27,044 bases of DNA from Oculatellaceae cyanobacterium bins.114 (GCA_033764315.1 JANRJA010000184.1:1-27044); one strand, 5' to 3'. Numbered from the stretch's first letter, positions 332-14,967 are shown. Notes: generated by a model not told the origin, from the letters alone. Program-made: numbers and translations.

Positions 332-1024
332 CTAGAAAACGGCTTGACCTTCCACATTTCCTGCCGGATTGTAGTGACAAACCAAAACATCGTTGCCATT
401 GCCACTTGCTAAACCACACCCAACTTCTGTAGTATTTCTCCAAATCAGTTGAGTGTAATGACCCACATCACTCCAATTCCCGCTACTAGAGATATTGGGG
501 AAAGTGCCGTAGACGAAATACTGCTTTTCGCTACCCCACATATCGACGAGCTGAGTGACAGAAAAACCGCCAGCACTGCCTTGTGCCAGGTTTTCTCCAG
601 CACCACTATGTTCAAATGTTCCTGTTGCAGCTAATTGATTTGCCCACTGTTGAGCACTCGCAGCCAAACTGTCTGACCATTGCAGCGGTGGAACACCGAC
701 TTGCGATCGGTATGCGTTATGAGCATTTAGGATCTCTTGTGCCATACCACCAATCGATAGTTCAGATGGAGTACCTTGTTCGACTGGTTTAAAGGATGAG
801 ATCAAATCATTCCATACTTCAGTAACCCAGGGATATTCGCCGGGTGTAAGCTGAAAACTTCTCCCCTCAAAATTCGCGTGTTCAAAAAATTCCCAGGTGC
901 CAGAGTAAACCTTAATCGAGGAAATTTGGTCGTTCCAAAAGTCTCCGATATAAGAATAGCCCTGCTCTAGAACTCCTGATGTGGCTCCAGAGAAATTGGA
1001 ATCTACAAAGATTTCGACTGACAT
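332..1024 (-). CDS. Beta/gamma-crystallin domain + CAP (SCP/PR-1) domain protein
   Basis: N-terminal crystallin motifs (FVDSNFSG, NDQISSIKV, FEHANFEG, NDLISSFK). C-terminal CAP motifs (AHNAYR, GENLA, GHYTQLIW, VGCG, VCHYNPAGN). ATG at 1024 has GGAG upstream and is preferred to the ORF-track start at 1033. Confidence 0.9.
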   Translation of the reverse strand: MSVEIFVDSNFSGATSGVLEQGYSYIGDFWNDQISSIKVYSGTWEFFEHANFEGRSFQLTPGEYPWVTEVWNDLISSFKPVEQGTPSELSIGGMAQEILNAHNAYRSQVGVPPLQWSDSLAASAQQWANQLAATGTFEHSGAGENLAQGSAGGFSVTQLVDMWGSEKQYFVYGTFPNISSSGNWSDVGHYTQLIWRNTTEVGCGLASGNGNDVLVCHYNPAGNVEGQAVF

Positions 1025-1122
1025 AATTAACACTCCAAAATTTGAAAAATAGTGAGTTGTAGTTCAGGTTTAGCTTGTTTGAGGTTGATCTATTCTTAGA
1101 ACTCACTCAAAGACCTTGCTGC

Positions 1123-1165
1123 GTTACATCAAGTAGATAGATGTCCGTGGTTTTAACTAATGCAG
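1123..1165 (-). promoter_or_regulatory. 43-bp conserved promoter-like motif, copy A (upstream of crystallin-CAP gene)
   Basis: + strand gttacatc aagtagatag atgtccgtgg ttttaactaa tgcag; aligns without gaps to copies at 2272, 11936 and 14925. Confidence 0.65.
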
Positions 1166-1217
1166 TTAGTGAGGTTGTAGCTAAAGATAGTCAATAAAAT
1201 TCTTGAATTAGATCACT

Positions 1218-1541
1218 CTATCCGCCTTCAGCTTGCAGAAAAATAGCACCTATTATAACTAAAGCAATGCCAGCCATTTTTATGCTGGTATAGGCTTCCT
1301 TAAACAGAAAGACTCCCAATAGCACGGTGCAGAGTGCGTCAAGCCCTAGAACTAGAATTCCAGTCATTCCCAAACTTGAATTGCGCGTTAATAGGTAAAT
1401 CTGTAGATGAACGCCAAGAGCAAACAGAGCGTAAGAAAGAATGCTAGGTAGTGGGCTGATATAACCGTTCGATAACTTCATAAACATGCCGCCAACGGCA
1501 TATAAAAGTGCAGTGGCGATCGCAATCAGGAAGAAAACCAT
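1218..1541 (-). CDS. SMR/DMT-family small multidrug-type membrane transporter
   Basis: 107 aa with four hydrophobic helices, MKLSNG and GVFLFKE...K.AGIALVIIG patterns; AGGAG RBS. Lacks the canonical EmrE Glu14. Confidence 0.8.
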   Translation of the reverse strand: MVFFLIAIATALLYAVGGMFMKLSNGYISPLPSILSYALFALGVHLQIYLLTRNSSLGMTGILVLGLDALCTVLLGVFLFKEAYTSIKMAGIALVIIGAIFLQAEGG

Positions 1542-1644
1542 AACAAACTCCTAATGTGCTTCGATGTAGTCTTTGTAGATTTGAGTGAGATTTCCAACTT
1601 CTTGAAGAAGTCGGAAATCTGACTAGCAGATCGCGATTGCCCAC

Positions 1645-1878
1645 TCAAATCAGCTTCTCACTGGAGTCTAGCTGCCATAATCGGTTCAGTAATTTAATTC
1701 GTCGTTGTACGACCATCGCTCGGTATTTTCGATAACTCATAATCGTGCAAATAATGACAACCGGAAAGAGGAGCACAAGTACTGCACTAATAGTATTTGC
1801 TTGCGTAGTATCAGCATTCTGGGTTAGGTTGTGCTGTGTTGAAGTAATTGTTCTATAACTGGATGAATTACCTGGCAT
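1645..1878 (-). CDS. Small single-TM hypothetical protein
   Basis: 77 aa, GGAGG RBS, hydrophobic stretch (ISAVLVLLFPVVIICTIM) followed by a basic tail ending LNRLWQLDS. Confidence 0.65.
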   Translation of the reverse strand: MPGNSSSYRTITSTQHNLTQNADTTQANTISAVLVLLFPVVIICTIMSYRKYRAMVVQRRIKLLNRLWQLDSSEKLI

Positions 1879-1934
1879 TTATGCCTCCGTCAGAACTTGA
1901 TAGTATTTGAACTGATATAGTGGTGTGCGGCTAT

Positions 1935-2093
1935 TTACTGCCAATACGATGAAGCAAACAGATCTGAGCTTACATCCACTAGAATCACAACACCAAGAAT
2001 GAAAACGCTGCCAAAAATAAATACACTGAGCGATAGCAAAACCATCTCTTTAATGGCTTTTTTAGAACGAGTAAATATGATGTTTCGTTCCAT
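1935..2093 (-). CDS. 52-aa small membrane protein (below ORF-track cutoff)
   Basis: MERNIIFTRSKKAIKEMVLLSLSVFIFGSVFILGVVILVDVSSDLFASSYWQ; AGGAG RBS; one TM; first ORF downstream of motif copy B. Confidence 0.6.
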   Translation of the reverse strand: MERNIIFTRSKKAIKEMVLLSLSVFIFGSVFILGVVILVDVSSDLFASSYWQ

Positions 2094-2216
2094 GATGATT
2101 TCTCCTAATTGAATGGGTGTGCTCGATACTTGGGACGTGAATCAACAAGTGATGCCGATTTGAATGGCGATCGCAACAAATCAATGATTGAGATATGTAG
2201 TCAGCAGTGCTTTCAC

Positions 2217-2246
2217 AATCCAAAATCAAAATCTAAAATCCCAAAT
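2217..2246. repeat. Short tandem heptamer (STRR-like) repeat
   Basis: aatccaa aatcaaa atctaaa atcccaa at; the duplicate near 11887-11910 has one unit fewer. Confidence 0.55.
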
Positions 2247-2271
2247 GGGATGTCTCAATCAAGCTTTCCCT

Positions 2272-2314
2272 GTTACATCCAGTGAATAGGTGTCGGAATT
2301 TTCAACTGATGCAG
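2272..2314 (-). promoter_or_regulatory. 43-bp motif, copy B (upstream of 52-aa / 77-aa / SMR unit)
   Basis: + strand gttacatc cagtgaatag gtgtcggaat tttcaactga tgcag. Confidence 0.65.
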
Positions 2315-2770
2315 CCGAGAAAAAACACTTGAAAGGTAAAAAACAATACAAGTAGTGTTTTGCCTACTAAAAGCTGACTTTTATTTCATCCATAACTCTG
2401 AGACATAACTATGACTGCAATGAGTGTGTCTACTTCAAGGATTTATAACATTGCTAGCATTTTTCTATGAGCATAATTATTGTTTAAGCAACGTCTTGCT
2501 TTTGAGGAGGTTAATTTTGAGATGCTTCAAAAACAGGCACATGGGCACCCGTTGTTCACTGTCTGCTGATCAGTGGAGCAATCGCTGTTTCACCTGTTCT
2601 TGCAAGTGCACAGCGCATTCCGTCGCCGATAACAAACACTTTGGGCAATGAGCGATTATCTCTTATTGTCGATTCTTGGAACTTGTAGACTCTAAAACAG
2701 TAAAAGGATCTGACAGGCTATAACCTTAGAGGTCAAGGCATGATTACAAAAGGTTGAGGGAACTCTCGCA

Positions 2771-5700
2771 ATGAGCAAGTCAGTAATTATTAAGCTTGGC
2801 AGTGGTGACTTGTATCAGGGATTTCCGAGAGTTACTGTGCAGTTATGGGCAGTGGGCAACCCACTCCCTGAGCAATTTATTGGCACGCTGCCTGCTGCGC
2901 CCACTTTAGTAGACCTGCATCGAAGTTGGCAGCTTGTTTATCGGGGGTTATGCGATCGCATCGCAGTCAAGCGATTTGAGAGTCCTAGATCTCAATCAGA
3001 ATATCCATTTTCAGATTCTTTCGTAGAAGCCGATCAATTAGAAATCAGTGAAGCAGGGATTACTAATATTTCTCAGGTCAGTTTTGATGAGCTGTGCCAA
3101 CAGCTTCAGGTAGCCATCAACTCCTGGCTGAAATCGGAAGGGTTCCTCCCCATTGAATATCAACTGCGATCGCGACTCGACCCATCGGAGCCGAGCCGAG
3201 TCATTATTGAAACCAACGATCTGGAATTACAACATCTGCCCTGGCATCGCTGGACCTTCTTTGAAGATTATCCCAAGGCCGAAATGGCTCTGAGTCAACC
3301 CGAGTATCGGTATTGCAATACCCTAAAGCCCGCAAAAACCAGCCAGAAAGTCAGGATTTTGGCAGTCTTAGGCAATAGTTCCGGCATTGATTTAGCAGCA
3401 GAAGCCCGTCTACTTCAGCGGTTGGAGGATGCAGAAGTCAAATTCCTGGTCAATCCCTCACGCCAAGAGTTCAATACTCAATTGTGGGACGCTGAAGGGT
3501 GGGATATCTTGTTTTTTGCGGGTCATAGTCAAACCCAGGGACAAACAGGTCGAATTTATATTAATGAGAATTCAACCCACAACAGTTTGACGATTCCACA
3601 GTTAGAAGAGGCGTTGAAAACCGCGATCGAGAATGGTTTAAAGCTGGCTATTTTTAATTCTTGTGATGGATTAGGTTTAGCACAAGCACTGGGGAAACTA
3701 CACATCCCCACAGTGATTGTCATGCGAGAAGCGATTCCCAATCGAGTCGCACAAGAGTTCTTTCAGCAGTTTCTCTCAGGCTTCGCGATCGCTCAATTGC
3801 CGCTATATCTTGCCGTTCAGCAAGCGCGTCGAAAACTACAAGGACTAGAGGATAATTATCCAGCAGCGTCTTGGTTGCCCGTGATTTGCCAAAACCTGGC
3901 GGTTGAATCTCCCAATTGGATTCAGCTAGGAGGAATGCCACCCTGTCCTTATCGCGGTCTATTTGCCTTTCGAGAGAAAGATGCTCGGTTCTTCTTTGGA
4001 CGGGAGCAGGTAACTCAGGAACTACTAGTTGCAGTCAAGCAAAAGCCATTAGTGGCAGTGATTGGTGCGTCTGGCAGTGGCAAATCATCCTTGGTCTTTG
4101 CTGGATTAGTGCCACTGCTACGTCAGGAATTGTGTAGTAAAAGCATCAACAAACAAGGTTCTCCATCTCCACATATTGTCTCGTTTCGCCCAGGGAACAA
4201 TCCATTTGAAGCATTAGCCAGTGGGTTGATGCAGTGCTCACCGATCGCCCAATTAGTTTTGTTACACCCGTCCCAACAGGAATGTGGGGATGTTGCCCAA
4301 AATGGTCAAATCGACCGATCGGTTGCAGTCGAACTAGAGTGGCGGTTGCGGCAAGACAACCAAGGATTGGTCAACCTCATTCAGTTAGTGGGACAGCAGA
4401 GTTTAGGAATGCGCTTGATTCTGATCATCGATCAATTTGAAGAGCTTTATACCCTTTGTCCAGAGGCAGATCGACAGGCTTTTTTGGACACCGTACTAAA
4501 TGCCGTGAGATTTGCTCCGACGTTTACTCTGATTCTGACCTTACGAGCAGACTTTTGTGGCTATGCTCTGGCTTACCGTCCCTTAAGTGATGCCCTGCAA
4601 GGAGCAATTCAGGTTTTAGGACCGATGAATCAGAAAGAATTGCAAGCTGCGATCGAAAAGCCCGCTGCCCAAATGCAAGTGAGATTAGAGGATGGATTAA
4701 TTCAGAAACTGATTTATGCCGTGAATGAGCAACCAGGGCGTTTGCCTTTGTTAGAATTTGCGCTCACACAATTGTGGTCAAACCAGCAAGAAGGATGGCT
4801 AACGCATCAGGGGCATGATCAGATTGGAGGTGTAGAAGAGGCATTAGCAAATCATGCTGAGCTTGTGTATGCCCAATTGAATGACGGGGATCAACAGCGA
4901 GCGCAACGGATATTTATCCAGTTAGTGCAACCTGGAACTGGAACTGATGACAGCCGACGATTAGCAACACGGGATGACGTACAGCCCCAAAACTGGGACT
5001 TAGTGACCCATCTAGCCTCCTGTCGATTAGTGGTGACTAACCGCAATGAGTCTACCGGAGAAGAAACCGTAGAAATTGTTCATGAGGCGTTGATTAGAAG
5101 CTGGAAACGGCTCAGGAACTGGATGCAACTGGATGGAGAGTTTCGTCTATGGCAAGAGCATCTGCGGAGAGCAAGGCGACAGTGGGAGGAAAGCGATCGC
5201 GAGGATGATGCGCTGTTGAGGGGTAGACAGTTACTGGATGCGAAGGATTGGTATGAGACTCGTCAAGATGAGTTGAGTTCTGGAGATTATACGTTTATTC
5301 GTCGCAGTTTGACGGTGCAAGAGCGAGAATTAAAACAGCGCAGACGCAGACGACAGATTGTTATTTCTAGTTTGATTGCAGGTCTGCTAGTTGCGTTGAC
5401 GTTGGCGGGCGTTGCCTGGTGGGGATGGCAAAATGCTGCCATCAACGAAGTCAAAGCACTCAGTACCTCTTCAAATGCACTTTTCGTCTCGAATAATCGG
5501 TTGGACGCGCTAATCGAAGCAATCCGAGCGCAGAAAAAATCGCAGATGATAGGCGGAGTAGACGCTGAGACTCAAACTCAGGTTGATTCCGTCTTACGGC
5601 AGGCAGTTTACGGAACGACTGAATACAACCATTTGTCATGGCATCGTGACGAGGTTAAAAGCGTCGCATTCAGCTCAGATGGTCAGACGATCGCCTCAGC

Positions 5701-7495
5701 TGGTGCCGATCAAACCATAAAGCTCTGGAAGCAAGACGGCTCTCTAATCGCCACTCTTAGTGGACACAGCGATAAAATTTGGCAAGCTGCGTTCAGCCCA
5801 GATGGTCATACAATCGCCTCAGGTGGCAAAGATAAAACCATCAAACTTTGGAGAATAGAAGCAGGTAAGACACCTGTCTTGCTAACAACTCTTGCTGGAC
5901 ATCGCGATGGTGTGAGAGGAGTGTCCTTTAGCCCCGATAGTCAAACACTGGCTTCAGTCAGTGACGATAAGACTGTAAAACTCTGGAAGCAGGATGGCAC
6001 ATTAATTATGACTCTCACAGGTCACACTGCTGTCGTGAACGGAGTAGCATTCAGCCCTGACGGTCAAATGCTAGCGTCAGCTAGTGATGACAAGACGGTT
6101 AAGATCTGGGCACTAGATGGCACATTAATTACGACGCTCACAGGTCACACTGATATTGTAAACGGGGTGGCATTTAGCCCTGATAGTCAAATGCTAGCTT
6201 CGTCTAGTTGGGACAAAACTATAAAACTCTGGAAATTAGAAGTTGGGAAAATGCCGACTCTACAGGCAACCCTTGTAGGACATAGTGAAGTGGTTTTTGG
6301 AGTGGCATTCAGCCCTGACAGTCAGACTCTCGTCTCAGGTAGTTGGGACAAGACGGTTAAGCTCTGGAAGCGGGATGGCATGTTAGTTACGACTTTTAAC
6401 GGACATAGCGATCGCGTTTGGGGAGTAGCATTTAGCCCCGATGGTGAAACCCTTGCCTCAGCCAGCGGTGACAAAACAGTTAAGCTTTGGAAGCTGAAAA
6501 ACCCTTTATTAACAAAGCTAACAGGACATGCTGCTGTAGTGATCGGAGTGGCATTCAGTCCTGATGGTCAGACCATTGCTTCGGCAAGTGATGATAAAAC
6601 GGTCAAGCTTTGGAAGCGCGATGGTACTCCGATCGCCACTCTCAGCGGACATGCCGCTCAAGCTTATGAAGTCGCCTTCAGTCCCACTGGCAAACTGGTT
6701 GCCTCCGCAAGTGCAGATAATACCGTGAAGCTCTGGAATGTAGAGAGGGAGAAATCTCAATTGTTCGCAACTTTGAGAGGACATGAAGCAGTAATTTGGG
6801 GAGTTGGCTTTAGTCCTGATGGTCAAATGGTTGCCTCCGCAAGCTGGGACAATACCGTCAGAACTTGGAAGTTAGGGCAAGGAGCACCTCAACCCTTCGC
6901 CACATTAAGAGGACACACTGCTGAGGTTTATTCAGTAGCGTTCAGCCCTGACAGTAAAACGATCGCTTCCACAAGCGCAGATAATACCATTAAACTGTGG
7001 AGAATAAAGCCAGGACAACTGCCTGTTCTCCTAACGACCCTTACAGGACACACCGCTCCAGTTTATGGAGTGGCGTTCAGCCCCGATGGTCAGACGATCG
7101 CTTCCGCCAGCGCAGATAATACAGTCAAGCTTTGGAAACCAGATGGCACATTGTTGACGACTCTTAAAGGTCATAGTGCTGTCGTTTACTCAGTCGCCTT
7201 CAGTCCCGATGGACAAACCATTGTCTCCTCCAGTTGGGATAAGACGGTTAAGCTTTGGAAATCGAATGGTATATTATTGACAACTCTAAATGGCTATAGT
7301 GATCGCTTTTGGGGCATCACCTTCAGTCCTGATGGTCAAATCATTGCTGCGGCCAATGAAGACAAAACGATCATTTTGTGGAATAAGGAGCAAGTTCTTA
7401 CCCTTAATCCATTGGAATACGGTTGCAGTTGGGTGCGTGATTATTTGAAAACAAATCCTAATGTGAGCGAGAGCGATCGTCATCTTTGTGATTGA
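2771..7495 (+). CDS. CHAT (caspase-like) protease + STAND/nSTAND1-type NTPase + TM helix + 14 WD40 repeats
   Basis: CHAT dyad motifs FFAGHS and IFNSCDG; CPYRGL..F....A..FFGRE; Walker A GASGSGKSS; Walker B LIIDQFEE; RRRRR followed by a hydrophobic helix; 14 GH...FSPDG...D.T.KLW repeats. Confidence 0.93.
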   Translation: MSKSVIIKLGSGDLYQGFPRVTVQLWAVGNPLPEQFIGTLPAAPTLVDLHRSWQLVYRGLCDRIAVKRFESPRSQSEYPFSDSFVEADQLEISEAGITNISQVSFDELCQQLQVAINSWLKSEGFLPIEYQLRSRLDPSEPSRVIIETNDLELQHLPWHRWTFFEDYPKAEMALSQPEYRYCNTLKPAKTSQKVRILAVLGNSSGIDLAAEARLLQRLEDAEVKFLVNPSRQEFNTQLWDAEGWDILFFAGHSQTQGQTGRIYINENSTHNSLTIPQLEEALKTAIENGLKLAIFNSCDGLGLAQALGKLHIPTVIVMREAIPNRVAQEFFQQFLSGFAIAQLPLYLAVQQARRKLQGLEDNYPAASWLPVICQNLAVESPNWIQLGGMPPCPYRGLFAFREKDARFFFGREQVTQELLVAVKQKPLVAVIGASGSGKSSLVFAGLVPLLRQELCSKSINKQGSPSPHIVSFRPGNNPFEALASGLMQCSPIAQLVLLHPSQQECGDVAQNGQIDRSVAVELEWRLRQDNQGLVNLIQLVGQQSLGMRLILIIDQFEELYTLCPEADRQAFLDTVLNAVRFAPTFTLILTLRADFCGYALAYRPLSDALQGAIQVLGPMNQKELQAAIEKPAAQMQVRLEDGLIQKLIYAVNEQPGRLPLLEFALTQLWSNQQEGWLTHQGHDQIGGVEEALANHAELVYAQLNDGDQQRAQRIFIQLVQPGTGTDDSRRLATRDDVQPQNWDLVTHLASCRLVVTNRNESTGEETVEIVHEALIRSWKRLRNWMQLDGEFRLWQEHLRRARRQWEESDREDDALLRGRQLLDAKDWYETRQDELSSGDYTFIRRSLTVQERELKQRRRRRQIVISSLIAGLLVALTLAGVAWWGWQNAAINEVKALSTSSNALFVSNNRLDALIEAIRAQKKSQMIGGVDAETQTQVDSVLRQAVYGTTEYNHLSWHRDEVKSVAFSSDGQTIASAGADQTIKLWKQDGSLIATLSGHSDKIWQAAFSPDGHTIASGGKDKTIKLWRIEAGKTPVLLTTLAGHRDGVRGVSFSPDSQTLASVSDDKTVKLWKQDGTLIMTLTGHTAVVNGVAFSPDGQMLASASDDKTVKIWALDGTLITTLTGHTDIVNGVAFSPDSQMLASSSWDKTIKLWKLEVGKMPTLQATLVGHSEVVFGVAFSPDSQTLVSGSWDKTVKLWKRDGMLVTTFNGHSDRVWGVAFSPDGETLASASGDKTVKLWKLKNPLLTKLTGHAAVVIGVAFSPDGQTIASASDDKTVKLWKRDGTPIATLSGHAAQAYEVAFSPTGKLVASASADNTVKLWNVEREKSQLFATLRGHEAVIWGVGFSPDGQMVASASWDNTVRTWKLGQGAPQPFATLRGHTAEVYSVAFSPDSKTIASTSADNTIKLWRIKPGQLPVLLTTLTGHTAPVYGVAFSPDGQTIASASADNTVKLWKPDGTLLTTLKGHSAVVYSVAFSPDGQTIVSSSWDKTVKLWKSNGILLTTLNGYSDRFWGITFSPDGQIIAAANEDKTIILWNKEQVLTLNPLEYGCSWVRDYLKTNPNVSESDRHLCD

Positions 7496-7503
7496 TAGCT
7501 TTG

Positions 7504-9507
7504 CTAAGTGAAATGGTAGATGCGCCCAAAGCTTGAAGGAATGCTAACTTCTAGCACATTGCTGCTAGAGAGAACATTTATAGTTGTGTGAGCATCGGTT
7601 TCCCCGTAGGCTTTCTTGAGAATATCCGTCCAGATCCCTACCTGGCCAAATGGGATGTCGATCTTTTGGTCTATTTCGGAAAAGTTGATGGCTACCAGTA
7701 CCACATCCGCTCCCTGCCAACGACGATAAACAATGATTTTACGCTGAAGATGTTCGCGCTCCAAAACACAGTGAGTGCGATCGCCCTTTAAAGCAGGTTG
7801 GGCTTTGCGAATATCCCCCAGAATTCGATAAAGCTTCGTCAAGGGCAATACCGGCTCTGCATCTGCACTACTTTGAGGCGAGTAAAAATAATCCCAATGC
7901 AGGGGGCGAGCACCTCGTACTCGTCCGTAGCCTTCATTAGGTAAGCCATAATTTTCGCCAAACTCTTGCCCCGCCCATAGCATCGGGATACCAACACTGG
8001 TCATCAACGCAATGGCATAGGGCTGTAGCTTCCACCATTTTTGGTTGTGTAGCCCATGTTGATAGTTGAAGCCTCCGGTATTGTCCCATTCTTGACCCGA
8101 CGTAATAATATACATCAAGCGGCTCTCATCATGTGATTCGAGGTATTGCACCGGTAATGCAGGAATCGTATCGCCATCAACCGTCTTTTCGCCACTATAG
8201 TTCAGGCTATCCCAGCGATCGCCGATCAGTAAAAGTTCTTTTCCGAAGTCACTACTGAAGGTGTTATCCTTTGCCATGGTCTTAGCAATATCATGGAGTC
8301 GCTTCTCCCAGCATCCATTGACAGCACTATTCGATTGAGTACCCAGTTGATAGGCACTTTCACCTAAATCCTCAGCAATCTGAATGATGCGTGAAGACCC
8401 ATCAATACTTTGGAAGCGAGTGATGCTTTTCGAGTGTTTATAGGTGTCTTTAGTCAAATTTTGTAGCGAGACAAAATTCGGTCGATTTTTAGAAGAATAC
8501 CAACTCACAGAGCCATCGGAGTTTTCTACAGGAGACTTATCGAGATAGCCGTTGACGTGGTCGTAGCGAAACCCATCAACGTGATACTCATCCAGCCAAA
8601 ACTGATTTACTGCGGCAAAAAATTCCTGGACTGATTTCATTCGGAAATCATTTTTGTGACCGAAATTGGAATAGGCATTAGACATTGGATTGGGAGATCT
8701 GCGTAGTGTGCCGCTATCTTGATATTCGTGCTGCTTCCATAGGTAAAAGAATGGATCGTAGCCTACCTGGTAAGGAAACATGAAATCGGTATGGGCATAA
8801 ACCATATCCAAAATGACAGCAATACCTTTGGCATGACAGGCTTGAATGAGCTTGCGGAATCCCTCAGGTCCACCAAAGCGTTCTTCAGGAGCAAAGTAGA
8901 AAATAGGCATATAGCCCCATTGCGAGGGCTCTGCGATGCTGTTAATCGGCATCAATTCGAGTACATTAACCCCTAAACTCTCAAGATAGGGTAAACGGTC
9001 GATGATGCCATAAAAATCATTTGCGAATTCATCCACGTTGATCTCGTAGATGACCGCATCCTTTAATTCTGGGACTTGGTAAGTCGCGGGATCGTTCATG
9101 GGTGGGGGTGCATCTTGAACTCGCACTACCGAAAATATCCCATTGGCTGTTTCCCGTGCGTAAGGGTCGCCAAAAAACAGCGAGCGAACCTTATTACCAG
9201 CATTTTCTTTGGAAGAACCCACGATTTCGTAGCGATAGATATAAGTTTCATTCCGTTCGAGATCCACGCTTACCTTCCAGAGATCTTTTGGCACATCGCC
9301 CCATCGATCATTTCCGGGGGGTGTTGCAGGTAGTGCAGTTATTGCTAAGGAAAATTTTTGGGCTGGAACTGTTCTTTCAAACTGTTGCGATCGCTTGATG
9401 ATATATACATTCACCTCAAAATCAGTTGGATTGACACTGGGCAGAAACAGCCGAAATTCAACCTGATTTCCTGTGACTAATGGCCCTACTTCGGAAATAT
9501 TAAACAT
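7504..9507 (-). CDS. GH13 alpha-amylase family glycoside hydrolase
   Basis: IYEINV, LESLGVNVLELMP, WGY, GIAVILDMVYAH, DGFRYD (nucleophile), IAED (acid/base), ESHDE, GIPMLWAGQEFG. Confidence 0.9.
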   Translation of the reverse strand: MFNISEVGPLVTGNQVEFRLFLPSVNPTDFEVNVYIIKRSQQFERTVPAQKFSLAITALPATPPGNDRWGDVPKDLWKVSVDLERNETYIYRYEIVGSSKENAGNKVRSLFFGDPYARETANGIFSVVRVQDAPPPMNDPATYQVPELKDAVIYEINVDEFANDFYGIIDRLPYLESLGVNVLELMPINSIAEPSQWGYMPIFYFAPEERFGGPEGFRKLIQACHAKGIAVILDMVYAHTDFMFPYQVGYDPFFYLWKQHEYQDSGTLRRSPNPMSNAYSNFGHKNDFRMKSVQEFFAAVNQFWLDEYHVDGFRYDHVNGYLDKSPVENSDGSVSWYSSKNRPNFVSLQNLTKDTYKHSKSITRFQSIDGSSRIIQIAEDLGESAYQLGTQSNSAVNGCWEKRLHDIAKTMAKDNTFSSDFGKELLLIGDRWDSLNYSGEKTVDGDTIPALPVQYLESHDESRLMYIITSGQEWDNTGGFNYQHGLHNQKWWKLQPYAIALMTSVGIPMLWAGQEFGENYGLPNEGYGRVRGARPLHWDYFYSPQSSADAEPVLPLTKLYRILGDIRKAQPALKGDRTHCVLEREHLQRKIIVYRRWQGADVVLVAINFSEIDQKIDIPFGQVGIWTDILKKAYGETDAHTTINVLSSSNVLEVSIPSSFGRIYHFT

Positions 9508-9590
9508 GACCTATCGCCTCTTCATAAATTTTGAAAGTCGCCGAACACAAACCTTGTCGTTTCGGCGTTGCTGAATAGTTGTAAGCCAAG

Positions 9591-11465
9591 TTAACTCATG
9601 TACTCTTTGATATGTTCAGCCAGTCTAAGTGCTAGAGCACCCAGCGTGAGAGAAGGATTTGCGGTTGGAATGTATGGAAAAACCGATAGATCACAGCAGT
9701 ACAAATTATCGTACTCATGAAATTTTAGGTGATTATCAACAACACCTTTGCCAAGCCCACCTATCCTCAGAGATCCACCCGTGTGGTAGGTTTCGGATTC
9801 CTCTCGATATTTAAGAGGTTTTTTAGCTGTAGACGGATCGACACCCAAAATTTTAAGGACTTGGTTCTTCAATTCAGTTGCTTCTTTTTCAAAGGGACGA
9901 TCTTGCATAGGTGCTACATTGACTATGGGTCGTGCCTCACCTCGTTTGACCCAGTTAGAATCGTTGAGTGCCCTGGGAAAAAGAAACTTGATGGTAGATT
10001 TAATCGGCGCATCATCATCTCCAAGTTTCTCTTTGTATAGATCATCATCCTCATAGCGAGGCTCCCAAAACCGATGGTTGATTGCAATCTCACAACTAAA
10101 CTTATTTGTATTTCCAGCGTCTGGGTTGGGCAGAAGAAATAGTTTAGCCTGGTCTCTTGGAGTGACGGCTATCGACCTTCGTGGAATTTCAAAATCTAGT
10201 GCCGCGCTTTGGTGATCAGTAAGACCATAACCAATTTTTCTGCTTTGATCATTCAGTCCGCTTCTGACAGCAATGCAAGGACTCTCTGTGGCTCCGGCAG
10301 CTAGAACAACGACATTTCCCCGATAGATTCGTTCCTTGTGGTTGATGAGATCCTGGCATACAACCCCAGTTACCTTTCGTCCGTCCCATTCAAGCCTGGT
10401 CACCAGGTGATTGAGATTGATTGTAATATTTTCTCCGCCAGTCCCCATATCAGGATAACTGACAGAGTTGAGTAATAGAGCTGCGGTAGAGAAGTAACCG
10501 GTTGGGCGCTCATCTGGATTACCCTGTCGCATTGTAATCCATGACATTTCTTGATGGTAGCTTCTAGGCAAATGCCGTACCTTATACTCGGGCAGTTCCT
10601 CTTCGATACGAGCCCGAAGAACTTTTTCGTAGTTGTTGTATTCGGTTCTCATTCGGAACAGCCTTTCTGCTCTCGTATATCCGCCTTTTTCAAGATAGTC
10701 AACGATGTCTTTATCCCAGTGCTCCAAATCCCATTTGTTCATTCTGGGAATCACAGATGACCAATAGAGCGATCGCCCTCCCAAGTTCAGGTGTACATCT
10801 TTTGTCAGTTTTGATCCTGGCTCGTTGTCATATGCTACCGATTTTCTTACATCCACCTCCGAGGCAGGAATAGGAGAGTTGCCGATATGAGAGGGCAAAT
10901 GAACTGATCCTGCTTCTAGTACAAGAACAGACATTCCTGAATCCGATAGCTGGTCAGCCAGGATTCCACCTCCCATCCCAGATCCAATGACAATGACATC
11001 ATATTTCTGCTCAGTATCTAAATTGCTAGGCACATATCGGCGGGAAAAATCTGTTTCCTCATTGAGTAAGTTTTCAATACCATGGGAATACCTCTTTTCG
11101 TAGCTGGGGAATGAAATATCTTGATCGGTAAACTTAACTTCTTGCTGATCAGTACAATGCTGATCAGTGCAAACGACAAACTGGCTATGCCCCATCACAC
11201 TGACAATCAAATTCTTATCCTTCTCCATCAAAACGACAATCGGGTCCTGCTTCATTGCAATATTCTCATTAACCTTAAATTGAAGAGTAGCCTTCTCCGC
11301 ACTCCAGGGTAAATGAACCGAGTACTGCCACTTCTTATCAACGTACTCGCCCCGGATTAGCCCTGAAGAAAACGATTCGGGGCAAGAAACAGTAATCTCA
11401 TTGGCAGGGATAAGATGCTCATTCGTAGTTGCAAAGCTGACCTTGAGAACTCTTGGTTCTTTCAT
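9591..11465 (-). CDS. GMC-family FAD oxidoreductase with ~150-aa N-terminal extension
   Basis: YDVIVIGSGMGGG dinucleotide-binding motif, VLVLEAG, LGGRSLYW, VVLAAGATES, YHTGGS and NLYCCDLSVFP...ANPSLT (His/Asn pair). Confidence 0.9.
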   Translation of the reverse strand: MKEPRVLKVSFATTNEHLIPANEITVSCPESFSSGLIRGEYVDKKWQYSVHLPWSAEKATLQFKVNENIAMKQDPIVVLMEKDKNLIVSVMGHSQFVVCTDQHCTDQQEVKFTDQDISFPSYEKRYSHGIENLLNEETDFSRRYVPSNLDTEQKYDVIVIGSGMGGGILADQLSDSGMSVLVLEAGSVHLPSHIGNSPIPASEVDVRKSVAYDNEPGSKLTKDVHLNLGGRSLYWSSVIPRMNKWDLEHWDKDIVDYLEKGGYTRAERLFRMRTEYNNYEKVLRARIEEELPEYKVRHLPRSYHQEMSWITMRQGNPDERPTGYFSTAALLLNSVSYPDMGTGGENITINLNHLVTRLEWDGRKVTGVVCQDLINHKERIYRGNVVVLAAGATESPCIAVRSGLNDQSRKIGYGLTDHQSAALDFEIPRRSIAVTPRDQAKLFLLPNPDAGNTNKFSCEIAINHRFWEPRYEDDDLYKEKLGDDDAPIKSTIKFLFPRALNDSNWVKRGEARPIVNVAPMQDRPFEKEATELKNQVLKILGVDPSTAKKPLKYREESETYHTGGSLRIGGLGKGVVDNHLKFHEYDNLYCCDLSVFPYIPTANPSLTLGALALRLAEHIKEYMS

Positions 11466-11697
11466 AAAAATCTCCGTGTATAGTTGTTACTCCTGATCTT
11501 GTTTGGAGATGTGCAATCAAGTTTCCCCAATTCCGTAGTAATCAATGTAACAATGCACATCTAAGCCTTTGAAAATGCTGTTTAGAGGCAATAAAAGAGC
11601 GAAATAGCAGACTTGCAATAACATTCTCTTGCATCCTTCTAATTTGCTACAGAAATTAATTTTTCTGGCAGCATCAAAAAACTCTCTCAACTACCTG

Positions 11698-11765
11698 CTG
11701 AGCAATCGCAAGTCTATCTCTTAAATGAATTTTTTAGAATGAGTAGATATGATGTTTCGTTCCAT
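11698..11765 (-). pseudogene. Truncated copy of the 52-aa ORF
   Basis: MERNIISTHSKKFI then TAA where the intact copy has AAA; similarity is lost after about 11698. Confidence 0.65.
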
Positions 11766-11935
11766 GATGATTTCTCCTGATTGAATGGGTGCACTCATAT
11801 TTGGGAAGTGACCAATGAGGGATACCACTTTGAATGGCGATCGCAACAAATGAACGACTGAGATATGTAGTCAGCAGTACTGTCGCAATCTAAAATCTAA
11901 GATCCTCAATTGAATGTCCCAATCGAGCTTACCTT

Positions 11936-11978
11936 GTTACATCCAGTTAGTAGGTGTCAGTGTTTTGAACTGATGCAG
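11936..11978 (-). promoter_or_regulatory. 43-bp motif, copy C (upstream of GMC / GH13 unit)
   Basis: + strand gttacatc cagttagtag gtgtcagtgt tttgaactga tgcag. Confidence 0.65.
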
Positions 11979-12050
11979 TTGGAGAGTGAACATAATTGCA
12001 ATGGAGAAAGTTATGTCAAAGATCGATAACGTTGTTGGCATTTTTCTAAA

Positions 12051-12380
12051 GATGTTGAGTTTTTGCTGGAACTGCTGGCTAAACTCCTCAAAACCTTGTT
12101 GAGAGACGTGAGTAATTCCCGTCTCGTCAATTTCCAGTTCATCTTCAATGATCGCTTCAATACCATCAGAGTCGGGGAGGCTTAACACCAAACGACTGCA
12201 CAAAGCCCGATAGGTAGACTGCCAGATACGATAGAATTCCACCAAGTCTGGGGCAGTGGGTAAGCTGCCAACCACCTGCTCGGCTTGGAACGACTGCTCT
12301 GTCTACAGGCAAACTGTAATTTGAGGAAAGCCCTGGGATAGATCCCCATTCCCCAAATTGATGACAACAGTCTTGCTCGT
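12051..12380 (-). pseudogene. Decayed N-terminal fragment of a CHAT-domain protein paralogous to 2771..7495
   Basis: Reads (ACG)SKTVVINLGNGDLSQGFPQITVCL*TEQSFQAEQVVGSLPTAPDLV... vs MSKSVIIKLGSGDLYQGFPRVTVQLWAVGNPLPEQFIGTLPAAPTLV. ACG sits at the start position, TAG (12303-12305) aligns to Trp26, and similarity ends after about 110 codons. Confidence 0.85.
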
Positions 12381-12381
12381 C

Positions 12382-13443
12382 TTAAAGTTCAAATGCTTCC
12401 CTGACATCGATGTTATGCAAACTGACTTTAATACTGAAGCCAGTTCCTGGCTTTCCTTTGAAGGGCTTTAGCTGAATGTAATTGTCCTGTTCTCTAGATT
12501 GCACCTCCTGTAGAATTTTGTCTACGTTAGATAATAATGTCAATTTAAGCTGTGCAGGTAAAACTTGTGCCCCTTGAGCAGGTAAAACCTGAACATTAAC
12601 ACCAATTTTCTCCTCACTTTCAGGAGTAACCGTGACCAGTAGTACAATGGCTTGATCCCCTAACTGCAACCCGAAATTAATCAGTTTGCCTCCCTTTGCA
12701 CCCAACGCAGCCTGACGGGTACTCCACGCCAGATTCGCTTCTGGATTGATCAGCGTTTCAATGGTTTGCCAGCCTTCTTCCAGAACTCCCTGCAACCATT
12801 GACTCAATCGAGTTCTCATAGTGCCAGAATCAGCTAGTGGTAGTACTTTAATTCGTTGATCCAACGCAGTTGGAATCGCAATGGTACTGGGTTCTAGATG
12901 TTGGACATAAACCATCAGATGATTGATCTCAGCATCTAAAGCTGATAGTGGCAGCAAACAAACTTCATCGGGTTGTGATGAAACCACAGGGTTGGCTTGA
13001 ATTGCGAGTTCGTCATACCGTAAAAAACCTCTCACGATCGCTTGCTCTTGTTCTTCTAGAACTTCTAATACGACGTAGAAGTGAGCGGCTAAATCTGGCT
13101 GTTCAATCACAAGTTTAGGAACTCTGACAATTTCATCTAGCATCTGTTCTGTGGCAATTAAACACAGTTGAAAATCACCCACTCGGAGATAACAACTATT
13201 CACAAGTTCATGAGTATTGTGTTGAATTGGGTAGCAAATGGGTAACCGTTCTCTCAACCAGGCTTCAAATGAAAGCATCCCTAAAACATTGAGATAGGTT
13301 TGCCACTGTTGTGACTCATCTTGTAAGCGATTCCCAGCAAGGGTGCTGATTGCTCTGGCTTGCTCGAAGTACTCCGGTTCTAACCACAGGGTTTCCGGTA
13401 ATTGAAGTCTCAGGTCTGTTGTATGCAGTGAATGGTTAACCAT
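12382..13443 (-). CDS. DUF1822 family protein
   Basis: Typical cyanobacterial DUF1822 patterns: WQTYLNVL...F..WL.ERLP, AAHFYVVLEV.EE....VRGFLRYD, LSQWLQG..EEGWQ.IE.L, LP..LKL.LL, DNYIQL. Confidence 0.85.
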   Translation of the reverse strand: MVNHSLHTTDLRLQLPETLWLEPEYFEQARAISTLAGNRLQDESQQWQTYLNVLGMLSFEAWLRERLPICYPIQHNTHELVNSCYLRVGDFQLCLIATEQMLDEIVRVPKLVIEQPDLAAHFYVVLEVLEEQEQAIVRGFLRYDELAIQANPVVSSQPDEVCLLPLSALDAEINHLMVYVQHLEPSTIAIPTALDQRIKVLPLADSGTMRTRLSQWLQGVLEEGWQTIETLINPEANLAWSTRQAALGAKGGKLINFGLQLGDQAIVLLVTVTPESEEKIGVNVQVLPAQGAQVLPAQLKLTLLSNVDKILQEVQSREQDNYIQLKPFKGKPGTGFSIKVSLHNIDVREAFEL

Positions 13444-13455
13444 GATTTATTTCCT

Positions 13456-14922
13456 CTATGCGTTTTGTTCAACGTAATGTTTTAGTTGCTGGGCATATAC
13501 GCTATCTAGCAACCGATTTTTCCCTGCCTTGATTTCAGACACTGCCGCTGTAAAGATCTCAGCATCAACAAATGCCTCAATCTGTTCAGTGAGTGTTTTG
13601 AGGTAGTTCGGCTCAGGGGGCATAGAGGCGAACCCTTGGGATTGGGCTTTTTCTAAAATTGGCTGCAACAGTTGCTGCACCATTAACCTACGGACGTTAC
13701 TCAACAAGTCCCCTAGATTGAGAATGCGTCGGGTCTGATCCCAACTGCTCATCCCTAACTGCGGACCAATGTCTTTGAGAGACAATCCCGCACAGTAGTA
13801 GAGACGCAAGCCAGGAATAAAGCAGGAAGCGAAGGGAGCATATCGCTTGCTTTTTTCGAGTTGAGCGATCTGAGTTTGAATCGCGTTTGCAATGGATTGA
13901 GCTAATGCAATCTCCAGTTGTTGGTGCAGAAACTCTAGAAATTCTTGCTCCTCTGCATCCAGTTCATTTAAGGAGTGGGTGGGTACATCTACTCTCAGGG
14001 TATAATTGCCATCCTCATTTTGAATTTCTAGGGGAGTTCTATAACTCCAGATATCATATTGTCGCAACTGTTTTGCCGCTTGCTTCAGTCCCTTCATCAG
14101 CTCAAGCGTTTTGAGAGAGATGCCTTGTTGCTGAAGTAAACTAGCCATTTCACTCAGTTGTAACTCATTCGGGTCTAGACAACGACCCACGTGTTGCTGC
14201 TGTCGGCGATCGCGTCTGTAAACGGCATGAAATGCTTCTACTAAAAGGCGATCGCACTCTGATAACTGTTCTAGCTGTTTGGGTCTAGCTCTGTTCAGCA
14301 GTGCCCAATCGCTCAGATGCTGAAATCCAAACTCCGACAGGAAAGCCTTTAATTCTGAATGTTGTTTAGTTTGTAAGAAAGCCCAATTATCCAAACTCAT
14401 GCTGGCTTGAGAATTCGGCTTATAGGTACGCAACACCTCCACAGTAAAAATCTTGTAGGTTATAGTTTGGGTTTCATCCACATCATTCAGCTTCAGTTGG
14501 GTAGATCCTTCCTCGTCTAAAAGAATGAGTGCCTTCCCATCATCATTAAGCACAAAGGGTAGCAAATCTCGGTAGGTAAACTGCTTGTTATCCCCTGTAA
14601 ACAAACTGTCAATCGTCTGGCAAGCCTTAAGAATGGGATAGGATACACGACATCTCAAGCAAAGACCAGCCTGGGCACGACTGGTTGTGTCAGCGTTCGA
14701 TTGCTTGTCACGAAATCGGGTGAGCAGAGCTGCTTGGATATCTCTAGTCTGAGAAGGAGAAAGATCGGAGAACTGTTGCTGAAAAAATTCCTGTATTGGG
14801 GGAATTGAGTAGTACTCATAGCCAACCCTTTCCCTGCTGAGGCTGATCCGGCAAAGAGTCCAGTATGTTGACGATGCATCCATGCTACTTATCTTCTCCT
14901 GATGTTCCCTACATGTTCTCAT
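13456..14922 (-). CDS. Conserved cyanobacterial sigma-70-like / HTH protein upstream of DUF1822
   Basis: Region-2-like segment (VLRTYKPNSQASMSLDNWA) and region-4-like HTH (LRLYYCAGLSLKDIGPQLGMSSWDQTRRIL). Start may be the ATG at 14883 (MDASS, AGGAG upstream). ORF is solid; sigma function is inferred. Confidence 0.65.
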   Translation of the reverse strand: MRTCREHQEKISSMDASSTYWTLCRISLSRERVGYEYYSIPPIQEFFQQQFSDLSPSQTRDIQAALLTRFRDKQSNADTTSRAQAGLCLRCRVSYPILKACQTIDSLFTGDNKQFTYRDLLPFVLNDDGKALILLDEEGSTQLKLNDVDETQTITYKIFTVEVLRTYKPNSQASMSLDNWAFLQTKQHSELKAFLSEFGFQHLSDWALLNRARPKQLEQLSECDRLLVEAFHAVYRRDRRQQQHVGRCLDPNELQLSEMASLLQQQGISLKTLELMKGLKQAAKQLRQYDIWSYRTPLEIQNEDGNYTLRVDVPTHSLNELDAEEQEFLEFLHQQLEIALAQSIANAIQTQIAQLEKSKRYAPFASCFIPGLRLYYCAGLSLKDIGPQLGMSSWDQTRRILNLGDLLSNVRRLMVQQLLQPILEKAQSQGFASMPPEPNYLKTLTEQIEAFVDAEIFTAAVSEIKAGKNRLLDSVYAQQLKHYVEQNA

Positions 14923-14924
14923 CT

Positions 14925-14967
14925 ACTCACCTGCATTAATAGATGCAGATCTTTTGAACTGATGCAG
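14925..14967 (-). promoter_or_regulatory. 43-bp motif, copy D (upstream of the sigma-like gene)
   Basis: + strand actcacct gcattaatag atgcagatct tttgaactga tgcag. Keeps the tttgaactgatgcag and tagRtg blocks at identical spacing; lacks the gttacatc block. Confidence 0.6.

Follow-up and report, generated by a model that had tools for sequence, protein, structure and literature searches.

The stretch of DNA analysed here, 27,044 nucleotides of the genome of Oculatellaceae cyanobacterium bins.114 (the window), raises the question of what reads a signal, CTGCATYAGTTNAAA-N7-CAYCTA, that recurs in front of several of its genes. This 28-base signal is most likely a dedicated promoter read by the adjoining sigma-type factor; more specifically, it is probably the autoregulated promoter of the divergent sigma-like factor encoded at 13456-14883, and as such would single out the small set of genes under the control of that factor. 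Computation directly shows the motif itself, that it is exclusive to this part of the genome, its conservation with the sigma-like/DUF1822 gene pair and its geometry; every step of binding, cleavage or transcription is inferred. By exact-pattern search the motif occurs exactly four times in the whole assembly of 6,637,253 bases (6.64 Mb). All four copies lie inside the window, within 13.8 kb of each other on the minus strand and each upstream of minus-strand genes, where the original prediction had placed them:

1138..1165, minus strand: motif copy A, exact match, upstream of a crystallin/CAP-domain gene
2287..2314, minus strand: motif copy B, exact match, 193 nt ahead of the ORF for a 52-aa membrane peptide
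11951..11978, minus strand: motif copy C, exact match, part of a decayed duplicate of copy B (11698-11978)
14940..14967, minus strand: motif copy D, exact match, 56 nt ahead of the sigma-like gene if this begins, as is probable, at 14883

Allowing up to three mismatches, the 28-nt core has four matches in the window, whereas 100 dinucleotide shuffles of it average 0.00, and its 15-nt left half occurs five times in the genome, at the four copies and at C77:18536. A weight-matrix scan of the genome, as proposed with the original prediction, leaves only these four sites as strong: with a matrix built from 15 sites of other genomes they score 34.8-51.3 bits and the next best place 17.4, a gap that mainly shows that the genome is without weaker extra sites, since the 15 sites were themselves located with the pattern of the original prediction. 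The half-site proposed at 1906-1920 exists as a sequence, but it lacks TGCAT and the second box, falls outside the matches with up to three mismatches and scores below 14 bits. The predicted trailing element, N7-GATGTAAC, does follow copies A, B and C and is absent after copy D.

The surroundings of the copies differ. Copies B and C belong, as had been noticed, to a longer duplication of about 290 nt (2026-2314 and 11698-11978, 83-87% identical) that runs from the motif through the leader to the beginning of a small ORF, which in the copy-C duplicate meets a stop after 14 codons; a terminator-like hairpin (11702-11686) lies downstream of copy C. Copies A and D, described as sharing no flanking similarity, indeed have nothing in common outside the motif. 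The claim that all copies are intergenic needs correcting for copy C, which overlaps the tail of a 112-aa ORF, a CHAT-gene remnant. IS fragments and a CRISPR array adjoin copy D. It is conceivable that the copies play no part in initiation and are either repeats that have spread, as mobile-element ends or through recombination, or a structured RNA leader, as the duplicate origin of B and C and the mobile-element debris and array next to D might suggest. This is, however, very improbable, because the genome holds only four copies, all in a single orientation relative to genes, and A and D have no common flank; the random orientation to genes expected of the dispersed repeat or MITE end named in the original prediction was not found. 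As for an RNA leader, conservation stops directly after the second box, the consensus fold of 19 sites amounts to -1.76 kcal/mol with 0 compensatory pairs, and no Rfam family is reached at gathering score.

The gene behind copy D is the candidate reader of the signal:

13456..14883, minus strand: sigma-like gene, 475 aa from M14 (the ORF to 14922 would give 488 aa)

The start at 14922 assumed originally is probably too early: alignments with orthologues begin at residues 8-17 and the length of most homologues is 471-490 aa, which favours M14 at 14883. The sigma character of the 475-aa protein is suggested by its predicted fold and by weak profile matches. The AlphaFold model has a mean pLDDT of 86.4, and an unbiased structure search through 48,161 chains returned sigma factors in 18 of its 20 best rows, with sigma domain 2 at the top. 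Residues 46-186 resemble domain 2 of M. tuberculosis SigA (Z 7.0, rmsd 3.0 A, 99/122 residues), RpoS regions 1.2-2 are matched with Z 6.8 (96/96 residues) and residues 194-282 resemble SigR region 4 (Z 6.2, rmsd 2.4 A, 62/65 residues), the sigma-4 fold matches of this last segment (Z 6.2-6.3) concerning a different HTH from the profile-matched one; all VIA Z-scores of the protein are at most 7.3, and values below 8 are common among helical proteins according to the tool. Comparison with the ECF sigma factors of this genome by hhalign gives E 7e-4 and a probability of 26% at residues 354-400 (the sigma-4 HTH), a profile-profile match to region 2.3 gives E 0.0043 and a probability of 8%, both probabilities being low, and TIGR02937 matches residues 285-394 (E 2.6e-4). 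No curated sigma model, however, accepts the protein; for TIGR02937 it scores 20.7 bits against a cut-off of 42.9. Pfam has no family for it, Sigma70_r4 is touched by only 3 of 28 family members (best E 0.008) and Foldseek returns no match at E <= 0.001. Searched with the family profile, this genome yields no second relative at E <= 1, and the sequences of solved structures yield nothing relevant. Matches to the protein at E <= 1e-10 number at least 734 protein clusters; among the 120 matches listed, the source names shown are all 'hypothetical protein' or 'Uncharacterized protein', with no Pfam domain, and the named organisms are all cyanobacteria. The protein had been compared to ECF-type factors, but its appearance is less that of a plain ECF factor than of one with three domains and insertions, and it would comprise a sigma-2-like N-terminal domain, two sigma-3/sigma-4-type HTH domains and a C-terminal extension.

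Other genomes link the motif to this gene. In other genera it recurs upstream of orthologues of the sigma-like gene, where the original prediction had suggested looking, and also fronts 77-aa-protein and CAP-domain genes like those of the window. A search of 61 genomes with up to two mismatches gave 16 matches, against 2 for the backwards control; five of the 16 belong to a single genome (G014), where all lie on the two contigs carrying its two orthologues, with one motif directly upstream of each orthologue. Among 185,579 species genomes, the exact pattern occurs at 15 distinct loci, 14 of them cyanobacterial, and at 7 of these 14 an orthologue (49-62% identity) is located within 10 kb. Upstream regions of orthologues carry the motif or a variant at the position corresponding to copy D, and TGCAT is found within 250 nt upstream on the coding strand in 12 of the 15 orthologues examined, the three without it being those of G052, G049 and one Calothrix copy. 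A looser, family-wide form, TGCATA-N16-AnnTAT, is enriched upstream of homologues of 26-35% identity. When the 230 nt preceding each of 28 homologues (identity mostly 26-35%) are compared, TGCATA ranks first among 6-mers, present in 15 against 1.36 expected (p 4e-13) and in 15 forward versus 1 reverse orientation, although related genomes are not independent samples and the p-values therefore overstate the case. Anchored on the 21 of 28 family members with an upstream TGCAT, a second box emerges at a fixed distance (A22 in 15/21, T25 in 14/21, A26 in 16/21, T or G at 27 in 19/21), and a purine occupies position 36 in 18/21. Family-wide, the promoter would take the form TGCAT(A/C)-N16-A-Y-C-T-A-Y, in which 16 nt separate a -35-like box from a short -10-like one.

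Two other readers of the signal have to be weighed against these data. The motif could be an operator at which the sigma-like protein, or another DNA-binding protein, acts as activator or repressor while a standard sigma factor initiates. The failure of the protein to reach any curated sigma model would agree with this, as would the short inverted triplets (CTG..CAG) throughout the motif and the conservation of all 28 nt, 'spacer' included, in the close subfamily. Across the wider family, however, only the two boxes at fixed spacing survive, as expected of -35/-10 elements; the motif always points the way of the gene behind it, as the 15-to-1 bias of TGCATA illustrates; no sigma-70 consensus match coincides with the motif at any of the four sites; and a sigma-2-like N-terminal domain would be needless for an ordinary HTH regulator. 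An operator is thus unlikely. The full 28-nt conservation nevertheless exceeds the usual needs of a promoter, which counts against the promoter reading too and may reflect a second factor binding there. Less likely still, the motif could be the promoter of another alternative sigma factor encoded elsewhere, with the sigma-like gene and its DUF1822 neighbour as just one target. One genome (G012, 95% complete) does carry an exact motif copy without an orthologue at E <= 1e-20, and L084, L081, L076 and other loci bear the motif without an orthologue in the 10 kb fetched on each side. But the G012 copy appears to be a relic, since its leader resembles that of copy A and no matching gene follows; motif and variants track the presence and subfamily of the gene genome by genome; and no other regulator gene is common to the loci examined. 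The comparative evidence, namely that the motif travels with the gene, stands in front of it and has -35/-10-like geometry, fits the original proposal that the sigma-like protein recognises this sequence. No paper with this motif was found in the published literature searched, in keeping with the earlier view that it is not a described cyanobacterial motif.

If the two-box element in front of the gene acts as a promoter of the sigma-like factor, this protein would join the RNA polymerase core and transcription would start about 7-9 nt past AYCTAY. It would activate its own operon, a case of positive autoregulation, together with two or three units close by, whose products are a crystallin/CAP protein and two membrane proteins, a peptide of 52 aa and a protein of 77 aa. 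The genes behind copies A, B and C are the following:

332..1033, minus strand: beta/gamma-crystallin and CAP (PR-1-like) protein, 233 aa (Pfam CAP 2.7e-25, Crystall 1.6e-15)
1935..2093, minus strand: 52-aa single-pass membrane peptide, 193 nt downstream of copy B
1645..1878, minus strand: 77-aa small membrane protein, downstream of copy B
1218..1541, minus strand: EamA-like membrane protein of 107 aa, encoded at the end of the copy-B unit (Pfam EamA 5.5e-5, below cut-off)
9591-11465, minus strand: GMC-family oxidoreductase (Pfam), downstream of copy C
7504-9507, minus strand: alpha-amylase-family protein (Pfam), downstream of copy C

The local regulon originally outlined is upheld in part. 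In addition to the factor's own operon, the crystallin/CAP gene is a likely member, CAP-domain genes being found downstream of the motif also in G014, L077 and L084. The 77-aa protein, likewise a likely member, recurs downstream of the motif in four other loci (tblastn matches on the motif strand in L077, L084, L085 and L087/L088, 42-53% over 74-76 aa), while L080 has two weaker partial matches upstream of its motif. The 52-aa peptide is also likely to belong; G014 encodes a 33-aa peptide in a similar position after a motif copy, and BLASTP gives no alignment between the two. Membership of the 107-aa EamA-like protein is uncertain, with no counterpart in 16 motif-bearing loci. That of the GMC-oxidoreductase/amylase operon is doubtful, because it depends on the decayed duplicate copy C and a terminator-like hairpin lies in between; neither protein has a tblastn match in the 16 loci with the motif that the collection scan supplied.

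How such a factor might be kept silent and released is suggested by the rest of its operon:

12382..13443, minus strand: DUF1822 gene (Pfam DUF1822 E 3e-58), starting 12 nt after the sigma-like gene
12048..12377, minus strand: N-terminal remnant of a CHAT-CHASE2 (EACC2-caspase) gene that contains an internal stop and breaks off where the copy-C duplication lies

A DUF1822-like ORF adjoins the sigma-like gene in 23 of 27 other homologue loci, and structure modelling predicts that the DUF1822 protein is a binding partner of the sigma-like protein. The complex model has a median score of 0.72, against 0.00 for the best of three controls; it thereby passes a mark that 116 of 157 solved complexes attain but only 2 of 215 mismatched pairs, counts that are only approximate because the analysis's own alignments were used. 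Contact agreement between runs is at least 61% and the pLDDT of the partner at least 71. The modelled interface comprises residues 9-188 of the DUF1822 protein and, on the factor, residues 386-452 (the sigma-4 region and C-terminal extension), 189-235 and 86-99. By covering the sigma-4 region and C-terminal extension, the DUF1822 protein would keep the factor inactive in an anti-sigma-like manner. In relatives with an intact module, the factor would be freed when the DUF1822 protein is cut by a membrane CHAT-CHASE2 protease, the product of the following gene of the operon. The protease gene of G014 is intact (798 aa, CHAT and CHASE2 by Pfam), and a 1522-aa ORF occupies the corresponding position in G010. 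In the genome studied here, about 110 N-terminal codons are left, which match residues 2-115 of the G014 protein (47% over 114 aa, E 5e-24, tblastn), and the module has no intact protease gene, so the switch would be either disabled or controlled in another way. A CRISPR array and a Cas6 gene also lie beside the locus; they are not seen in the annotated orthologous regions of G014 or G010, and their nearness is thus probably due to chance.

A short, specific and near-private promoter would provide the output of the module, as it names target genes and predicts a transcription start, and the motif would be a ready reporter for anti-sigma action by DUF1822 and for release of the factor by the CHAT-CHASE2 receptor. 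The genes found behind the motif across genomes encode CAP/PR-1-like proteins, a CVNH lectin, a GH18 chitinase-like protein, a C39-like peptidase and small membrane peptides, a set that recalls plant pathogenesis-related proteins and thereby an inducible defence regulon. The receptor, DUF1822 and the sigma-like factor could then form an outside-in pathway that induces a defence regulon, perhaps an extracellular one, in filamentous cyanobacteria, a reading that is tentative and unlikely. An external cue would free a private sigma factor to turn on a small battery of non-housekeeping proteins, and paralogous modules, each with its own variant of the TGCATA-N16-AnnTAT promoter, would provide insulated channels within one cell.

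Classical ECF sigma factors (e.g., SigW, sigma-E) have a bipartite promoter before their own operon, an adjoining anti-sigma gene and a small regulon. The locus described here shares the bipartite element, an adjoining putative anti-sigma gene and a small predicted regulon. ECF-type factors are, however, proteins of about 200 aa with two domains that read boxes of the AAC / CGT type, whereas the sigma-like protein has about 475 aa and at least three domains, passes no ECF model and is associated with different boxes.

The nearest tested parallel of the module appears to be the sigma-HetZ/PatU3/HetF system of Anabaena PCC 7120, a likeness in described features. As presented in the accessible parts of these reports, sigma-HetZ is an oversized cyanobacterial sigma factor with extra domains (PMC13342950, PMC9457339, PMC7377430), whose inhibitor binds sigma-4 and the added domains and is removed by a CHAT-family protease (PMC13342950). 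Its private promoter has a hexamer at -35 and, after a 16-nt spacer, a short -10 box from -13, and the factor, with 546 promoters as targets, also drives the operon of its own inhibitor (PMC13342950). Going by those same parts, the motif resembles this promoter in its hexamer, 16 nt and short box from about -13 (PMC13342950), and the module resembles the system in its extra-domain factor, its putative inhibitor (predicted here to contact sigma-4 and the added domains), its CHAT protease and a factor that would drive the operon of its own putative inhibitor. It differs in the boxes (TGCATA / AnnTAT here, TCCGGA / TGnA there), in the protease, which unlike HetF is a CHAT-CHASE2 receptor of the same operon (a remnant in this genome), and in the targets, which would be a few neighbouring genes. 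Should the family turn out to share ancestry with sigma-HetZ, protease-gated sigma circuits would form a much larger group in cyanobacteria, to which the heterocyst switch belongs as a single member. In type III CRISPR sigma systems (CalpL/CalpT/CalpS, Craspase-Csx30/CASP-sigma and PCaspase/PCc-sigma; 10.1101/2023.06.23.546230), as far as the available text of that work goes, a partner-held sigma factor is likewise freed by the cut of a dedicated protease, as proposed here, and target genes are largely unknown as well. Their trigger is an intracellular cyclic oligoadenylate, whereas in relatives the protease of this module has CHASE2 as its sensor domain. Systems of this kind are already in print, judging from the portions available of these works (eLife 2021 for the neighbourhood, PNAS 2026 for sigma-HetZ). 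The computational catalogue of eLife 2021 describes, in the portion consulted, a neighbourhood of sigma-like, DUF1822 and EACC2-CHAT protease (variable C-terminus) genes, whose authors proposed that the sigma factor regulates many genes. The DUF1822 gene adjoins the sigma-like gene in the window too (12-nt gap), whereas the EACC2-caspase gene is a remnant here. To that neighbourhood, presented in the same portion without promoter or targets, the present analysis contributes a motif, the form that it takes across the family and target genes that recur.

A bipartite promoter-like motif, with the minus-strand form CTGCATYAGTTNAAA-N7-CAYCTA, is present in the window in four copies (A to D), all at the positions assigned to them by the original prediction and all directed, as it held, into minus-strand genes. 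The 28-nt cores and the genes behind them are:

1138-1165, minus strand: copy A, preceding a gene for a beta/gamma-crystallin plus CAP-domain (PR-1-like) protein
2287-2314, minus strand: copy B, preceding genes for a 52-aa membrane peptide, a 77-aa membrane protein and a 107-aa EamA-like protein
11951-11978, minus strand: copy C, upstream of a decayed small ORF
14940-14967, minus strand: copy D, 56 nt upstream of M14 (14883), which is the likely start of the gene for the 488-aa sigma-like protein

The explanation that we favour, with moderate confidence, is that the motif is a private promoter from which a divergent sigma-like factor would activate its own operon. This factor would be held in check by its DUF1822 partner, the protease gene of the module having been lost at the locus. 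The motif provides a testable output for a widespread, unannotated module.

Matches to the pattern with up to three mismatches in the window are exactly copies A to D, and 100 dinucleotide shuffles yielded none. The exact pattern occurs four times in the 6.64-Mb assembly of this genome (251 contigs, 90.7% complete), each time inside the window, and the left half of the motif alone is found once more, on contig C77. The proposed genome scan was performed with a weight matrix from 15 sites of foreign genomes, which is not fully independent because these sites were located with the pattern of the original prediction; copies A to D scored 34.8-51.3 bits and the rest of the genome at most 17.4 bits, which shows that this genome contains no weaker additional sites. 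The sequence does contain the half-site proposed at 1906-1920, but this has neither TGCAT nor a second box and, failing both the mismatch scan (three or fewer) and the weight matrix, is rejected as a site. No sigma-70 consensus match overlaps any of copies A to D. A look-up of the window DNA in public sequencing runs returned one run, of DNA type, that contained 8% of the words sampled; RNA runs were absent from the result.

A less likely reading is that the copies represent a mobile repeat. Copies B and C do lie within one longer duplication of about 290 nt (83-87% identity), as had been described, which spans the motif, a long leader and the beginning of the small ORF, and N7-GATGTAAC trails copies A, B and C and is absent after D. 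Between copies A and D the motif is the sole shared sequence, and this lack of common flanks, together with the single orientation of the four copies, argues against a mobile repeat.

The motif is also found in a more general form upstream of distant homologues of the sigma-like gene. For 28 homologues, mostly just 26-35% identical to the window protein, 6-mers were counted in the upstream 230 nt. TGCATA ranked first, being present in 15 of the 28 regions against 1.36 expected (p 4e-13, which overstates the significance because the sampled genomes are related) and in 15 forward and one reverse orientation. Outside the two boxes these upstream regions do not align. Anchoring 21 sites on TGCAT reveals another box at a fixed distance, with A at position 22 (15/21), T at position 25 (14/21), A at position 26 (16/21) and T or G at position 27 (19/21), and position 36 is a purine in 18/21. 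These positions give the family motif TGCATA-N16-AnnTAT, of which the window motif is the subfamily version. The results speak against a structured RNA element: conservation ends directly after the second box, the consensus fold of 19 sites reaches -1.76 kcal/mol with zero compensatory pairs, and no Rfam family matches.

The motif observation was confirmed to extend well beyond the window. Among 60 relatives and the own genome, the pattern at up to two mismatches gave 16 matches versus two for a backwards control. In G014, a genome of a different genus, the 488-aa protein has two orthologues (56-57% identity), and there are five matches, all on the two contigs that bear these orthologues: one directly 5' of each orthologue, and three exact copies 7-9 kb from one of them. 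The exact copies precede, respectively, a 33-aa membrane peptide accompanied by a DUF4278 protein and a 77-aa protein, a 91-aa protein with an N-terminal hydrophobic stretch, and a CAP-plus-RTX protein. The likeness of the 52-aa window peptide to the 33-aa peptide is one of position and eye, since BLASTP gave no alignment between them, and the CAP proteins of the window and G014 have the domain in common with an alignment of just 45 aa (E 1e-4). In two further relatives, G011 (71% identity) and G046 (63%, broken gene), CTGCATA(G/T)GCTCAAA-N7-CATCTA lies 5' of the sigma-like gene, and a third, G010, has a weak version there as well as a divergent site pair preceding a CVNH lectin gene and a GH18 gene. 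Exact matches to the variant motif in these three genomes are restricted to the copies before the sigma-like genes; four extra matches at 2-3 mismatches, versus none for the backwards control, may be due to chance.

In one genome each of 185,579 species, the exact pattern was found at 15 distinct loci, 14 of them cyanobacterial; with equal base frequencies, 596 Gb would be expected to yield about four chance matches, so that the single Bacteroidota match is compatible with chance. Calothrix sp. PCC 7716, Heteroscytonema crispum UTEX LB 1556 and Hyella patelloides LEGE 07179 are among the carriers of the exact pattern. Within 10 kb on each side, half of the cyanobacterial loci (7/14) contain an orthologue (49-62%) with DUF1822, and the genome of an eighth has the orthologue on a different contig. 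At four of the motif-bearing loci (L077, L084, L085 and L087/L088) the 77-aa protein has a match behind the motif, on the same strand, and L077 and L084 also have a CAP match there; in L080, two weaker partial matches to the 77-aa protein are upstream of the motif. Of 15 orthologues, 12 have TGCAT in the 250 nt that precede them; it is missing there in G052, G049 and one Calothrix copy. An orphan exact copy is found in genome G012:

L059:6900-7560 (G012:C16): exact motif copy with a leader that resembles that of copy A

Behind it lies hairpin-rich DNA that seems not to encode protein and, beyond that, a CHAT gene. The G012 genome yielded no sigma-like orthologue, nor a matching gene behind the motif, and this copy looks like a relic. 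After the CHAT gene comes a gene for an nSTAND1-CHASE2 protein.

An additional question is whether the 488-aa protein is of the sigma type. Pfam found no family in it, TIGR02937 scored 20.7 bits (below the cut-off of 42.9), Sigma70_r4 touched just 3 of 28 family members, and the homologues are named 'hypothetical protein' or 'Uncharacterized protein' throughout, among the 120 listed. A search of solved structures by sequence gave weak HTH matches only. The AlphaFold model has a mean pLDDT of 86.4; in Foldseek it matched no solved structure at E <= 0.001, and the top 50 matches are nearly all sigma chains. A different structure search, against 48,161 representative chains, placed sigma factors in 18 of the top 20 rows, led by domain 2 of M. 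tuberculosis SigA (Z 7.0, rmsd 3.0 A, 99/122 residues), and matched residues 194-282 to sigma-4 domains (SigR region 4, Z 6.2, 62/65 residues), Z-scores in a range that the tool flags as common among helical folds. Profile-profile comparison with the sigma factors of the own genome weakly detected a region 2.3 motif (E 0.0043, probability 8%) and a sigma-4 HTH at residues 354-400 (E 7e-4, probability 26%), both where they would be expected in such a protein, and in a language-model atlas the protein adjoins cyanobacterial clusters in which 12-87% of members carry Sigma70_r4. We read the protein as a very divergent sigma-type protein, with a putative architecture of a sigma-2-like domain at the N-terminus, followed by two HTH domains and an extension at the C-terminus. 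The motif may be an operator bound by an ordinary regulator, or a promoter read by another sigma factor, and the conservation of the spacer in the close subfamily and the genomes that carry the motif only are in line with both; the strict orientation of the motif, the family-wide conservation of both boxes and the sigma-2-like domain of the protein speak against them. A private promoter of the sigma-like factor is the reading retained here.

The candidate partner of this factor is encoded next to it. Beyond the window, 27 homologue loci were covered, and 23 of them have a DUF1822-like ORF beside the sigma-like gene. One ORF joins the two:

L029:1514-3814 (G018:C65): 766-aa ORF in which the C-terminal half of the sigma-like factor is joined to a complete DUF1822 domain

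This ORF could reflect either natural gene fusion or misassembly, an error being possible in a 91%-complete draft. The predicted factor/DUF1822 complex passes with a median score of 0.72, the best of three controls reaching 0.00; this mark is attained by 116/157 solved complexes and 2/215 mismatched pairs, counts that are only rough because the analysis's own alignments were used. Contact agreement between runs is at least 61%, and the pLDDT of the partner at least 71. In the model, DUF1822 lies with its N-terminal half over the sigma-4 region and C-terminal extension of the factor, as an anti-sigma factor would do. Four further DUF1822 loci exist in the own genome:

C62:3264-5989: preceded by a 503-aa sigma-like gene and followed by a large ORF
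C85:732-5586: preceded by a 395-aa sigma-like gene and followed by a large ORF
C199:55583-59747: preceded by a 215-aa sigma-like gene and followed by a large ORF
C213:26536-33588: preceded by a 263-aa sigma-like gene and followed by a large ORF

Three of these sigma-like genes were run against Pfam. Only the C62 factor is detectably homologous to the window protein (31% identity), and its gene has a TGCATAGG-type box in the upstream region.

The module of the window is rearranged downstream of the sigma-like gene, around these features:

12 nt after the sigma-like gene, minus strand: DUF1822 gene
12019-11992, minus strand: sigma-70-like promoter match TTGACA-16-AATTAT, immediately 5' of copy C and within the protease-gene remnant
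11702-11686, minus strand: terminator-like hairpin, after the decayed small ORF downstream of copy C

The DUF1822 gene is followed by the N-terminal remnant, 110 codons with an internal stop, of what was a CHAT-CHASE2 protease gene (47% identity to the intact 798-aa protein of G014). This remnant ends where the copy-C duplication starts, which places copy C on a rearrangement scar. The small-ORF copy downstream of copy C is decayed, with a stop after 14 codons, and beyond it and the hairpin lie a GMC oxidoreductase gene and an amylase-family gene; either the sigma-70-like match or the hairpin could make the oxidoreductase operon independent of the motif.

Other features surround the motif copies:

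2771-7495, plus strand: nSTAND1 NTPase (1574 aa) with 14 WD40 repeats, divergent from copy B
15053-15420, between copy D and the CRISPR array: broken frames resembling, by eye, a transposase N-terminus, which suggests an old insertion
15436-16561, plus strand: CRISPR array of 16 identical 37-nt repeats (start-to-start spacing 71-78 nt), beginning about 470 nt from copy D, with an extra degenerate repeat near 15364-15403
17098-18261, plus strand: Cas6 endoribonuclease (387 aa), beside the array
18999-24086, minus strand: run of five consecutive genes for family-2 glycosyltransferases, including three (18999-22017) that are clear paralogues with repeated segments

The C-terminus of Cas6 has a Sigma70_r4_2-like HTH (Pfam E 1.7e-5, 24.8 bits versus a cut-off of 25.7), an unusual fusion.

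The motif was found in no paper of the literature searched, which comprised non-subscription journals and a minority of supplements, and among the matches listed for the 8-mer TGCATAGG there was no paper on bacterial promoter motifs. The sigma factor of the EACC2-caspase/DUF1822 neighbourhood has been proposed as a regulator of many genes, and the portions of that paper covered give no promoter for it (eLife 2021). Protease-gated sigma factors exist beside type III CRISPR systems (bioRxiv 10.1101/2023.06.23.546230). In the parts of the HetZ papers covered, the CHAT protease HetF degrades PatU3, which sequesters HetZ (PMC9457339), and HetZ is required by DIF1-motif promoters (PMC7377430). In July 2026, cryo-EM and in vitro transcription identified HetZ as an ECF-type sigma factor with three inserted domains, whose promoters carry TCCGGA at -35 and TGnA at -13 to -10 and of which PatU3 touches two insertions and sigma-4 (PMC13342950). 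Family-profile and Sigma70_r4 searches of the own genome, as well as NCBIfam scans, gave no link to HetZ; in the Sigma70_r4 search, nothing of HetZ size stood out apart from the C85 sigma gene. As an analogy, the geometry and logic of the HetZ/PatU3/HetF system agree with those inferred for the window module.
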